Below are positions 11,885-20,934 of a stretch of DNA of 64,000 bases, piece by piece. Both the position numbers and the translations under genes were made by a program. Source of the DNA: Thermoleophilia bacterium UBA2241. GTDB lineage: Bacteria > Actinomycetota > Thermoleophilia > UBA2241. The DNA lies in assembly GCA_002347645.1 (NCBI GenBank), contig DDYF01000034.1, positions 1,907 through 65,906 on the forward strand, given 5' to 3'. The notes beneath the pieces are model-generated. The model was not told the DNA's origin, did no database searches, and saw only the letters and a program-made list of their open reading frames with translations. The stretch's first letter is position 1. Each line of letters begins with the position of its first letter.

Positions 11885-12256
11885 TTACGCCCAAGCGATG
11901 AAGCCCAGGCCGCGGTCGGCGCAGATGCGGAAGAGCTTCCGCAGTTGGCGGATCTCATCGGGGGTGGGCGTGAATCGCTCACCGAGGTCGAGCCGATCGC
12001 AGACCGTCTCGGGGTCGCAGGCGCTGAGCTTGTCGGCCATCCCGGCGAGGGTCTCGGGCGGAAGCCACTCGTGGTAGAGCGACTCGCCGGTGACCTCCAG
12101 CACGAACTCCGCATAGACCTTGCCACGGAACGAGGTGACGCCGTCGCTGAACATCCCACCGCACAGGTCGATGCCGGACTCGGTGAGAGCGCGCTCGTCC
12201 TCGGGGGTGAGCACGACCTCGTCCGGCGAGCGCGAGACGACGTTGTCCAGTCCCAT
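11885..12256 (-). CDS. small-protein family member A1 (123 aa), first gene of the Clp operon
   Basis: Internal ATG (residue 219 of ORF 11885..12910; the upstream part is shadow of the + strand gene). MGLDNVVSRSPDEVVLTPEDE...SFRGKVY...WLPPE...DEIRQLRKLFRICADRGLGF aligns with four paralogs in this window. Confidence 0.7.
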   Translation of the reverse strand: MGLDNVVSRSPDEVVLTPEDERALTESGIDLCGGMFSDGVTSFRGKVYAEFVLEVTGESLYHEWLPPETLAGMADKLSACDPETVCDRLDLGERFTPTPDEIRQLRKLFRICADRGLGFIAWA

Positions 12257-12433
12257 CACTTCCCCTTCGTGCTCCTGTGCGGCAGGCGCGCCGCGCGGCG
12301 GCGTCGCCTGTCCGCGTCCCTCTGATTGATGCCAGAGTCTACCCACCGCAGGGCACTCCTTCGGCCGCTCGGGGGTACGATAGCGCCGAGGGGGCGAGGA
12401 GCCGCTCCTTCCGGCGACGCGAGGGGGTTGACA

Positions 12434-13942
12434 ATGGTATCTGACCAGCCCGACCAGTGCTTCGTCGTGATGCCGTTCGGGACCAAGCCGCTCAACGACG
12501 GCAGCGGCCGACTCTACGATTTCGACAGGGTCTATCGCGTCATCATCCAGCGCGCGATCCGGCAGGCGGGACTCGAGCCCGCGCGCGCCGACGAGCGCAA
12601 GGTCTCCGACATCATCCACGCCGACATGTTCAAGCAGCTGCGCGACCGCGGCGTGGTGCTCGCCGACCTCTCGCTGGAGAACCCGAACGTCTTCTACGAG
12701 CTCGGCGCCCGTCACGTGATGTCGGCCAAGGGCACGGTGCTCATGTGTCGCGCGGGGTCGGAACTGCCGTTCGACGTGAAGCTGTCGCGCGTCATCTTCT
12801 ACGACTTCGACGGCAGTCACCTCGACTGGGAGGAGGTCGAGCGCGTCGTCAAGGAGCTGCAGTTCGCCCTCGAGGAGGCCAAAAGGGGCACGCCCGACAG
12901 CCCCGTGCACGCGCTTCTGGAGCGGGTGCTGCCCGAGGAGGCCGCTGCACGGGAACGCGGCACAGCGGCCGGCGTCGACGAGGGCGGCGTCGACGAGTCA
13001 CTGGCCGACTTCCAGGGCATCGTGGCCGACCACTGGGCCAGTGAGGACACGCCGACGGACGAGCTGCTCGGCGTGTGCGGATCGTCGGTCTTCGGCTGCC
13101 GGGCGCTCGGGCTGCTGACGTTGACGAGAGAGACGCCGTCCGATGAGCTCTCGGCGGTGGCCAGGCGGCTCTACGACCTCTCCCAATTCGACCTCGCGAG
13201 CCGCCTCTACGAGCGCCTGGATGCACAGGGCACGCTGGGCGTCGCCGACCTCCTGGAGTACGGTTCCACGCTGTCCGAGCTGCGCTCGGACCTCGTCGCC
13301 GCGGACCAGGGCCTCGCCCAGATGCAGCGGGCGGCCGACATCCTGACGCCGCGGCTCGAGGAGGAGTCGCCCTCGCCCGAGACACTGCGGGACGGCTTCG
13401 CCTGCTATTACAGGATCGCCGGCCTGTACCGCTGGCGCTGGCAGCTGAGCCGCGACGAGGAAGACTTGACCCTGGCCATCGAGCACTATGAGCGGGCGAT
13501 GGGGGTCGGCAAGCGCCTCGACAAGGCGGCCGAGGACTTCGAGATCGGCCGCCTCGCCGCCTGCCACTTGGCGCTTCTCCTCCTGTTGCGCCTCCGCGAC
13601 GACAACCCCGACCGCGGCGACATCGAACGCCACCGGGAGCAGATCCTCAGCCTCAAGGTCGACGGCCGGCATAGCTTGGTGGAGGAGTCGTTCACCCGCT
13701 GGTGCCAAGCGATCGCGCTGGCCGACGGCGGCGACGCCAACGGCTCGAACCACATGGCCATGCACGCCTACTCCGAGGATGCCAAGGTCATGGACCAGCC
13801 GGGCTGCGAGGCGATCGGCCGCAAGCAGTATGCGGGTCTGCGGCGCTACCTCGAGCACTACTCGGGCGTCCTGCATCACCCCAGCCTCATCGGCCACATC
13901 TCGCAGGTGCTGCAGATCGGCCACCGGACGCAGGCGTCGTGA
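12434..13942 (+). CDS. TIR/nucleoside-2-deoxyribosyltransferase-like N-domain fused to TPR-like helical repeats
   Basis: ATG at residue 37 of ORF 12326..13942, with GAGGGGG upstream. The N-domain reads CFVVMPFGTKPL...YDFDRVY...VVLADLSLENPNVFYELGARH. The C-terminal ~350 aa are helical repeats. Confidence 0.75.
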   Translation: MVSDQPDQCFVVMPFGTKPLNDGSGRLYDFDRVYRVIIQRAIRQAGLEPARADERKVSDIIHADMFKQLRDRGVVLADLSLENPNVFYELGARHVMSAKGTVLMCRAGSELPFDVKLSRVIFYDFDGSHLDWEEVERVVKELQFALEEAKRGTPDSPVHALLERVLPEEAAARERGTAAGVDEGGVDESLADFQGIVADHWASEDTPTDELLGVCGSSVFGCRALGLLTLTRETPSDELSAVARRLYDLSQFDLASRLYERLDAQGTLGVADLLEYGSTLSELRSDLVAADQGLAQMQRAADILTPRLEEESPSPETLRDGFACYYRIAGLYRWRWQLSRDEEDLTLAIEHYERAMGVGKRLDKAAEDFEIGRLAACHLALLLLLRLRDDNPDRGDIERHREQILSLKVDGRHSLVEESFTRWCQAIALADGGDANGSNHMAMHAYSEDAKVMDQPGCEAIGRKQYAGLRRYLEHYSGVLHHPSLIGHISQVLQIGHRTQAS

Positions 13943-20509: not shown

Positions 20510-20613
20510 TGTACTGCGCGAGGGTCGCGCGGCCGTGGCCACCGCATCGTGTACTGTTGACTGGTGTCTGGCGGTCGGCGAAAGCACGACGGGTGGCAGG
20601 TGGTGCCCCGAAC

Positions 20614-20934
20614 ATGAGCCTCGACATGTACGCCTCGCGCTCGCAGGACGACATCGTCCTGACCCCCGAGGCGGAGGCCGCCTTCGCGCAGCTCAAGGTG
20701 CACGTCCACGCGTGGGACGGCACCGGCTCGTTCGGCGCCAGACGGTACATCGAGCTCGTCGACCGGGTCGCCAGGGTCGTGCTCGGCTACAGGTGGATCC
20801 CGCCCGACGACGTCGCGCGCGAGAGCGCCGCAGACACCTACCCGGCGACGGCGGACCAGGTCCGCGGGCTTGCGCCAGCTCCTCCTTCTCTGCGCGACGC
20901 GCGGACTTGGCCTCCTGGGGATGTGACGGGGTGA
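20614..20934 (+). pseudogene. small-protein family member A5, apparently decayed (internal ~13-codon deletion plus a +1 frameshift near 20871)
   Basis: MSLDMYASRSQDDIVLTPEAE...GSFGARRY...WIPPDDVARE...TADQVRGL, after which the family C-terminus RQLLLLCATRGLGLLGM* continues in the +1 frame (stop 20924-26). The annotated frame reads APAPPSLRDARTWPPGDVTG*. Confidence 0.55.

Follow-up and report, generated by a model that had tools for sequence, protein, structure and literature searches.

Bacterial NLR-like (STAND) systems sense phage proteins through repeat domains, and to our knowledge it is largely unclear how the separate sensors, NTPases and chaperone modules found with them are restrained and wired together. 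Among small proteins and modules of conflict systems, the SUKH/SMI1-KNR4 and Imm families are immunity proteins of polymorphic toxin systems, and effector-associated domains (EADs) are defined by their fusion to effectors and to the termini of NTPases. Here, a stretch of 64,000 nucleotides from Thermoleophilia bacterium UBA2241 (Actinomycetota; contig DDYF01000034.1, positions 1,907 to 65,906), called the window below, is analyzed for an acidic protein of about 120 residues that is encoded five times, as A1 to A5, within an island of WD40, NACHT and Clp-type genes. These copies belong to a large and unannotated family, which is shared between uncultured phages and cellular islands of sensor, NTPase and chaperone genes.

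The initial annotation had described five paralogs that align over their full length, and this is borne out by their coordinates, their alignment, matches to a hidden Markov model (HMM) of the family, GC content at third codon positions (GC3) and orthologs in other genomes. All five are recognizable, but A5 is decayed, so that the set consists of four intact copies and one degraded copy:

A1, 11885..12256, minus strand: 123 residues; canonical (ancestral-type) member, with the phage-like core LCGGMFSDGVTSFRGKVY and the C-terminal residues IAWA
A2, 13939..14295, plus strand: 118 residues; derived paralog, with the core VNEW...SFGGKRY and the C-terminus LLGM
A3, 17149..17514, plus strand: 121 residues; first of the tandem pair A3-A4
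A4, 17531..17890, plus strand: 119 residues; second gene of this pair, at a distance of 16 nt from A3; the copy whose structure was modelled
A5, 20614..20934, plus strand: decayed A2-type copy, 12 nt before the WD40 gene at 20947..23391

These are real paralogous open reading frames (ORFs) with pairwise identities of 30-62%, and of 48-62% among the four intact copies; identity to A1 is 45% for A2, 55% for A3, 48% for A4 and 30% for A5. Against the family HMM, the whole ORFs reach E-values of 8e-45 (A1), 7e-30 (A2), 2e-35 (A3), 2e-40 (A4) and 3e-14 (A5), and a six-frame HMM scan of the 64-kb window returns exactly these five as the sole copies. GC3 is 0.88-0.92 in their annotated frames, the window and the genome having 70% GC. 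Shine-Dalgarno-like purine runs are present 5' of A1, A3, A4 and A5, and each window copy has orthologs in related metagenome-assembled genomes (MAGs). A1 lies 77 nt upstream of a ClpB-like gene that runs in the same direction, and is 80% identical to its ortholog in the related locus L007 (loci with family genes are given L numbers). A2 begins within the end of the preceding gene, which encodes a 538-residue protein, its start sharing 4 nt (GTGA) with the stop of that gene, and a gap of 20 nt separates A2 from the WD40/zinc-ribbon gene at 14316..16514. The further claim that each copy stands at a module boundary describes this one island and does not hold as a general rule.

Compared with A2 and with intact orthologs, A5 carries a 45-nt in-frame deletion that removes the helix with the motif MAAAFEA.DPE.VA. 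The deletion, in the region 20795-20870, is flanked by the 12-nt direct repeat GA(C/G)GTCGCGCGC, and its boundaries are a typical scar of slippage or microhomology. In addition, one extra T near 20870 (in CTTGCG) produces a +1 frameshift that alters the C-terminus. The ancestral frame can still be read as ...LRQLLLLCATRGLGLLGM* and ends at 20926, and the orthologs of A5 in L007 and L014 are intact, with 118 residues.

Beyond the window, the window-type profile recovers 912 proteins of about 118-123 residues, all of them labelled hypothetical. An exhaustive search of 1.84 billion representatives gives 498 clusters at 50% identity, 183 of which fall below an E-value of 1e-10, and the phage-type profile adds 2,262 further clusters at 90% identity, none of them named and none with a Pfam domain. 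Nearly all of the best 150 of the 498 representatives at 50% identity are standalone proteins of 110-135 residues, and the only genuine fusions among these 150 are two self-tandems of 242 residues, P0121 and P0122. Other long relatives were considered as domain fusions and rejected as artefacts of frameshift, mistranslation or chimerism; one such chimera, P0137 (366 residues), has an A1-like N-terminus followed by a segment judged TROVE/vWA-like by eye. The signature of the family is MGLDxY...LCGG(x5-8)SFRGKVY...LYxE(W)I...ExxxLxxxF...GxxLxGW(W/Y), with 208 of 268 sequences starting with MGLD. Phage and cellular members alike are strongly acidic, with a median net charge of -10 to -11 and an isoelectric point (pI) of about 4.4; for the other proteins of the window, the net charge is -0.55 per 100 residues.

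Searches of annotation libraries agree with the initial statement that this sequence pattern could not be placed in a family. In Pfam, NCBIfam and PADLOC, the window copies give chance-level matches only (DUF7691, PhyH, an NHLP RiPP model and REase_II). For instance, the DUF7691 (PF24740) match concerns A4 alone, reaches 16.4 bits against a gathering score of 27 bits (E 0.01) and covers 57 of 204 model positions, while the only PADLOC-DB match is to REase_II at a chance-level E of 0.038. In PHROGs v4, two window copies and eight phage-encoded members have no match at E<=1e-3. The family is real, large and unannotated, it is invisible to Pfam, NCBIfam, PADLOC and PHROGs, and it merits a family model of its own whatever its role.

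The AlphaFold2 model of A4, built on a 73-sequence alignment, predicts a compact alpha/beta domain with a local confidence score (pLDDT) of 94.2 and a predicted template modelling score (pTM) of 0.87. Its elements are a strand (4-8), a helix (18-26), a short strand (39-40), a helix (42-53), a strand (61-62), three helices (64-76, 79-85 and 95-110) and a terminal strand (114-118). Given this order of elements, the termini should lie side by side, and the N- and C-terminal strands probably pair in one small sheet. Among predicted viral structures, two uncharacterized proteins match the A4 fold (E about 1e-5, TM 0.67). The model of the self-tandem P0121 is a compact two-domain unit (pTM 0.80), which suggests that the domain may pair with itself, that is, form a dimer; a Foldseek search of the tandem-fusion model against the PDB gave no match. 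In P0121 and P0122, the second domain lacks the MGLD start and has CFTTAGAR or KFVNVAAR in its place, and thus the invariant MGLD may matter only as a free N-terminus.

The closest known relative is DUF1877/YfbM, although this relationship is distant and borderline and family membership is not established. The best PDB match of the A4 model in Foldseek, and the only notable one, is 1ryl_B (YfbM), at an E-value of 0.049, a probability of 0.72, a TMq of 0.46 and a root-mean-square deviation of 8.3. The DUF1877 HMM (PF08974) is matched by 2 of 104 diverse members at E<=0.01, the best at 5.7e-5, while A1-A5 do not match it even at E<=10. An hhalign comparison of the family alignment with E. coli YfbM gives a probability of 0.2%, and profile searches of the PDB with two family alignments return nothing significant and do not retrieve 1RYL. 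A homolog search seeded with YfbM was useless for profile-profile comparison, as it yielded almost only close Escherichia/Shigella sequences. With regard to likeness, both groups begin with MG(M/L)xxY at Met1 (MGMIGY in YfbM), both have a helix and then a beta-strand at the C-terminal end (...QGNHALTVIVG* in YfbM and ...RGLGLVGSW* in the family), and both are small, acidic, standalone proteins of no known function. By contrast, YfbM is about 45 residues longer, and LCGG...SFRGKVY...GWW is not evident in it. Because the Foldseek and HMM ties are borderline and the profile searches fail to connect the two groups, DUF1877 is regarded here as a relative and not as an assignment. A known domain with a housekeeping role had been foreseen as an outcome that would speak against a role in the island; none of the libraries searched assigns the family to such a domain, but the borderline tie to DUF1877/YfbM stands. 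In any case, YfbM gives no functional guidance, and the literature searched on YfbM, DUF1877, PF08974 and DUF7691 holds nothing relevant.

Another observation is that vWA genes recur beside members of the family or of DUF1877, upstream in L064 (3-1199) and in the E. coli locus L017 (5996-9438), E. coli yfbM being one gene away from that of the vWA protein YfbK.

Most of the diversity of the family resides in uncultured phages, in which it is a single-copy accessory gene. In IMG/VR, at least 31 contigs carry full-length members, with 26-38% identity and HMM E-values from 1e-16 to 1e-37, and many low-GC metagenome contigs resemble these phage loci. In the larger phage contigs, the single family gene lies inside dense arrays of small ORFans. 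Its neighbours include genes for a small terminase subunit, MazG, a helicase, an RNA polymerase, Sak, SSB, ParB_N, DUF932 and Kyano_Gp96, with no constant partner, and none of the 62 phage-type loci has a neighbour of STAND, WD40 or Clp type. Searches with tblastn gave no match for four phage-type members in 50,697 cultured-phage records, nor for A1 in plasmids.

Some phage members lie near genes that are of interest in their own right. In L042, a homolog of Tad3, a Thoeris inhibitor, is encoded directly upstream of the family gene (9153-9950; E 4e-31), and a weak Tad2-like match lies 3 kb from a phage member (L102, 4586-4825). DUF3846 is found near the family gene in two unrelated contigs (L102, 9637-9966; L104, 12460-12792), the family gene directly follows DUF932 genes in a marine group (L093, 3148-4092), and MazG, HD_4 and Metallophos genes are near phage members at other loci. 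The surroundings with Tad3, Tad2, DUF3846 and DUF932 may be anti-defence gene clusters.

The cellular setting is different. Among GTDB representative genomes, the family occurs at six loci, all in MAGs of Thermoleophilia or other Actinomycetota. When window proteins were used as phmmer queries, 26 of 39 cellular loci had a homolog of WD40, NACHT, nSTAND5, TrkA-RyR, ClpB, TY-Chap1 or HEAT proteins within 7 kb, and none of the 62 phage-type loci had any of these; for most of the other 13 cellular loci, the contig is not long enough for a verdict. L007 shares the gene order of the window, with which it is syntenic, and other loci show other orders. For instance, in L009, TIR_2 and WD40 genes stand with a family gene and TrkA-RyR, and a separate group consists of Clp, a gene for 147 residues, TY-Chap1 and a second family gene. 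In L005, a TIR-WD40 gene is followed after 14 nt by the family gene and then by an AAA-RyR gene, while in L075 a WD40 gene and a DUF4062-NACHT gene precede the family gene, the latter by 9 nt, and a protein with the leader described below follows. In L058, the family gene comes after nSTAND5/RyR, with NACHT and WD40 alongside; in L049 and L004, it stands between a gene of the 538-residue type and a WD40 gene; and in L013, it lies between HEAT genes, beside WD40 and NACHT. Three tandem copies adjoin WD40 and a Reg_prop propeller in L060 (47% GC), TrkA-RyR and Reg_prop are the neighbours in L062 (44% GC), and in L006, L050, L052 and L066 the family gene is flanked by ClpB-like genes. Linked cellular loci span 44-47% and 62-73% GC, and the family gene is often a few bases from a large neighbour or overlaps it. 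Multi-copy arrays are confined to this type of island.

The linkage is strong but not obligatory, as L010 has a solitary copy among metabolic genes, L015 has a lone copy and L011 has only HEAT-repeat neighbours. The initial annotation had staked its proposal on linkage to STAND, WD40 or AAA+ genes recurring in other genomes. It does recur, at 26 of 39 cellular loci, in non-syntenic orders and in at least two GC classes; what does not carry over is an extension to the phage-type loci, where it is absent (0 of 62), or to the solitary cellular copies.

Neighbour-joining places the cellular copies together in one clade, apart from a far more diverse phage branch; this clade covers Thermoleophilia/Actinomycetota and at least one lower-GC lineage. 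Within it, the A1 type is an older sub-branch (123 residues, C-terminal AWA/AWS), and the A2/A5, A3 and A4 types are younger duplicates. A1 is most often the window copy nearest to phage members (31-43% identity). The sub-branches also differ in their gene neighbours. An A1-type gene accompanies the Clp/TY-Chap1 operon, heading it in the window and in L007 and trailing TY-Chap1 in L009. Genes of the A2/A5 clade, whose members have the core V(N/H)(E/A)W...SFG(A/G)(R/K)(R/K)Y, have lost LCGG and end in L(L/Y)GM, stand immediately upstream of proteins with the WD40 leader, and a more distant family member holds the same place, upstream of a leader-bearing protein, in L075.

Copies also decay. Decayed family genes are found in the window, L002/L014, L004 and L009. 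Family, WD40 and Clp genes are broken across frames in L002/L014, in L004 (10001-11365) and in L009 (3087-3926), which reflects either rapid decay of the island or indel errors in long-read MAG assemblies. This turnover, together with the lone copy in L015, appears to resemble that of accessory or immunity genes of conflict systems.

Besides A1 to A5, the island in the window encodes the following:

8528..9046, minus strand: TY-Chap1 (T3SS/YbjN-type peptide-binding chaperone; PF22551, E 2e-10), last gene of the A1-Clp operon
8959..9414, minus strand: 151-residue protein with a C-terminal zinc ribbon, earlier labelled FHA, a label without Pfam support
9411..11807, minus strand: ClpB-like double AAA+ ATPase with a Clp_N domain (Pfam)
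12326..13942, plus strand: 538-residue protein with an N-terminal alpha/beta domain and then a TPR-S-like region, translationally coupled to A2
14316..16514, plus strand: WD40 protein; NACHT-linker-like leader at the N-terminus, zinc ribbon at the C-terminus
16598..17002, plus strand: multi-CxxC (zinc-ribbon-rich) protein of 134 residues, upstream of A3-A4, with no family match
18413..20587, minus strand: WD40 protein with leader, divergent from A5
20947..23391, plus strand: WD40 protein with leader and C-terminal zinc ribbon
23511..26120, plus strand: DUF4062-NACHT STAND NTPase without sensor repeats
26158..28263, plus strand: AAA/nSTAND5-like NTPase, with homologs flanking family genes in L005, L053/L054 and L058
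28739..30730, plus strand: TrkA_N-RyR protein, with homologs near family genes in L005, L006, L009, L051, L058 and L062

The operon that A1 was said to head, Clp-FHA-YbjN, is confirmed in its gene order and in its last gene, which Pfam identifies as TY-Chap1, but not in the FHA assignment. A TY-Chap1 gene follows Clp in L007, L009, L004 and L014 as well; the TY-Chap classification is that of PMC9503650. The N-terminal domain of the 538-residue protein bears a weak, non-significant resemblance to nucleoside 2-deoxyribosyltransferase/Rcl. Library scans of the window proteins found no phage structural or integration genes in the island.

Several features of the neighbouring genes were observed in passing. 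A conserved helical leader of about 90 residues, ..AFSRAL.RE.HNL...P.(F/L)VFQQL(Y/H)NRLQWE.., starts three WD40 proteins (14316-14600; 20300-20587, minus strand; 20947-21230) and is also seen in L013 (13382-13558), where it sits between a NACHT gene and its WD40 repeats. In this respect, the island resembles a NACHT receptor with separately encoded sensor halves in several alternative copies. The 151-residue protein and two of the WD40 proteins share a C-terminal zinc ribbon, C..CG...N/Q..GA.WC..CG.DL (8959-9040, minus strand; 16430-16514; 23300-23391), and the CxxC-rich protein is encoded nearby (16598-17002). After the TrkA_N-RyR gene, a fifth beta-propeller protein with C-terminal WD40 repeats is encoded (30024-33290, plus strand), with a 44%-identical counterpart after TrkA-RyR in L009; the ORF as listed begins inside the RyR gene, and the actual start probably lies near 30.8 kb. 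Two pairing rules were considered and rejected. That each copy pairs with a zinc-ribbon protein is true in the window and fails in L005, L058 and L059, where the relatives have no ribbon; that there is one copy per WD40 gene is roughly true in the window and L007, and 8 of 18 larger loci have no WD40 gene.

The island extends from about 5300 to 33400 and is flanked by RlmL (2879-5260) and Prismane/POR (33480-37769). In L015 (1929-11241), the same RlmL and Prismane, POR flanks enclose one family gene and no island. This shows that the island is a variable insert and that a single copy can be retained in its absence. When the window is compared with L007, the ClpB-like protein is 91% identical and the NACHT protein 85%, the flanking RlmL 63% and the WD40 proteins only 40-48%, which makes the WD40 genes hypervariable; for the family itself, the values are 80% for A1 and A4, 68% for A2/A5 and 59% for A3. 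That core genes of the island are better conserved than RlmL suggests lateral movement or strong constraint.

The reading preferred here, tentatively and at somewhat less than an even chance, is that the family protein is a non-catalytic, dimer-forming binding subunit of the island's sensors and AAA+ module, with the part of an inhibitor, a bait or an adaptor. On this view, it would sit on the large proteins of the island or bridge them, and would either hold them in check, as an immunity protein does, or offer a copy of a phage protein as bait. The derived paralogs (A2, A5 and A3-A4) would each be matched to a neighbouring sensor gene of their own, and the canonical A1 travels with the Clp operon. 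As for the phage homologs, they would act either as the natural ligand or as a mimic directed against the defence. The adaptor, guardee, decoy or immunity-type component of the initial annotation has thus gained the gene linkage described above, while we infer the binding role itself, and its direction, from gene context. Several points weigh against such a subunit. The neighbour varies by locus (WD40, NACHT, nSTAND5, Clp, HEAT or vWA), so that no single partner is defined, and some members stand alone among metabolic genes (L010) or have HEAT proteins as their sole neighbours (L011). A Gly-rich loop together with the invariant residues D4, R, K and Y makes up the most conserved motif, which could just as well bind a small molecule or form a catalytic site. 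In addition, the majority of the cellular loci belong to a few MAG lineages that are related, and the linkage may therefore partly be shared ancestry; the phmmer queries with window proteins favour Actinomycetota and may under-detect partners in phage loci; and some frameshifts may be long-read assembly errors and not decay. A more specific arrangement, which is distinctly unlikely, is that hosts keep copies of phage proteins as baits or decoys, pre-loaded on the separate WD40 sensor halves of a split NACHT receptor. The paralogs would be tuned to their sensors, A1 would feed a ClpB-like/TY-Chap1 remodelling arm, and phage homologs would trigger the system or compete with the baits. If true, this would be a prokaryotic counterpart of the guardee/decoy logic of plant NLRs.

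Other readings assign the conserved residues or the genomic setting a different meaning. One of them, unlikely although with a real chance, makes the protein a sponge or buffer for a small molecule, or a small enzyme, that acts on a nucleotide-derived signal from TIR/DRT-like or DUF4062 domains, with the phage copies as anti-defence sponges like Tad1, Tad2 and Acb2. LCGG...SFRGKVY, with its Gly-rich loop and its basic and aromatic residues, and D4 are indeed the best conserved positions across phage and cellular members, but the conserved, sensor-adjacent A2/A5 clade has replaced exactly these residues. The coupling of A2 to a protein weakly like nucleoside 2-deoxyribosyltransferase/Rcl and the DUF4062-NACHT gene 9 nt upstream in L075 would fit such a signal. 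So would Tad3 in L042 and the weak Tad2-like match and MazG, HD_4 and Metallophos genes near other members, although, of the 144 phage neighbours scanned, Tad3 and Tad2 account for one case each. Small size and a likely dimer suit known sponges; nevertheless, neither fold nor sequence matches any known sponge or nucleotide-binding protein, and strong acidity disfavours anionic ligands. It is improbable, in turn, that the gene has a general cellular or phage function, of a distant DUF1877/YfbM type, and is hitch-hiking and duplicating locally in a recombination-prone hotspot. The borderline tie to a chromosomal E. coli protein of no known function, the solitary copies of L010 and L015 in metabolic neighbourhoods, the phage copies without a consistent neighbour and the origin of many cellular loci in related Thermoleophilia MAGs are all consistent with it. 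Against this, the linkage recurs with varied gene orders, with gaps of a few nt or overlaps and at both 44-47% and 62-73% GC, subtypes keep their neighbours across genomes (Clp/TY-Chap1 for the A1 type, a place before leader-bearing sensors for the A2/A5 type), and multi-copy expansion is seen in these islands only.

There is little likelihood that the family is a DNA mimic or another anti-restriction protein of phages, with bacterial copies that are domesticated or left over from prophages. Extreme negative charge (net -10, pI about 4.4) would suit a mimic, but comparison with the PDB and with predicted viral structures gives no match to Ocr, ArdA or other mimics. The family is mostly phage-borne, its phage branch is the more diverse one, and phage copies lie in early/accessory regions beside DUF932, SSB, ParB_N, Sak and DUF3846. 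However, the 50,697 cultured-phage records and the plasmids contain none, the island is without phage structural or integration genes, and the cellular clade is coupled operonically to STAND, WD40 and Clp genes and not to restriction systems. A role confined to the A1 type, as substrate, adaptor or regulator of the ClpB-like/FHA-like/TY-Chap1 module, with the other paralogs as by-products of duplication, is likewise very unlikely. Its attraction lies in the place of A1-type genes, which stand first in the Clp operon of the window and of L007 and come after TY-Chap1 in L009, in the ClpB-like genes that flank members in L006, L050, L052 and L066, and in the conserved aromatic motif at the extreme C-terminus (GWW/AWS/AWA), a possible recognition tag. 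The same termini are retained in phage members, though, where no Clp gene lies nearby, and A1-type genes also occur alone or with HEAT proteins, with no Clp gene within 10 kb.

Taken as a binding subunit or otherwise, the compact fold, the thousands of members, the sharing between phages and islands and the duplication beside sensors make the family a testable candidate for a regulatory, bait or anti-defence piece. It is a testable lead and not a demonstrated new mechanism. The link with NLR-like islands and with a phage reservoir was absent from the libraries and literature searched.

Compared with known systems, the family is like immunity or antitoxin-like proteins in being standalone and acidic, with about 120 residues, in its paralog arrays, tandems, orphans, decay and viral homologs, and in the tight coupling of its genes to large multidomain neighbours. 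It differs from SUKH and Imm proteins in that no sequence or fold match to them was found in Pfam or the PDB, and in that it is encoded beside STAND NTPases, WD40 sensors and AAA+ chaperones, with no recognizable toxin. With Tad1, Tad2, Tad3 and Acb2, it shares the condition of a small phage accessory gene among ORFan clusters, with relatives in defence-like islands of hosts; it has no homology to them, and the association is anecdotal (1 of 144 neighbours). As in the case of EADs and adaptor modules, paralogous small modules are scattered through an island of STAND, WD40 and chaperone genes, whereas, unlike EADs, the family is fused only to itself among the best 150 of 498 representatives. 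The Aravind-laboratory classification of NTP-dependent conflict systems reportedly also defined TPR-S and nSTAND, and TPR-S, nSTAND1/3/5, bpMoxR and TY-Chap1, which are found beside the family, all come from that classification, a likeness to the context of EADs. Although the family matches neither in sequence or fold, its closest functional analogies would be with small immunity or antitoxin-like proteins and with the anti-defence proteins of phages.

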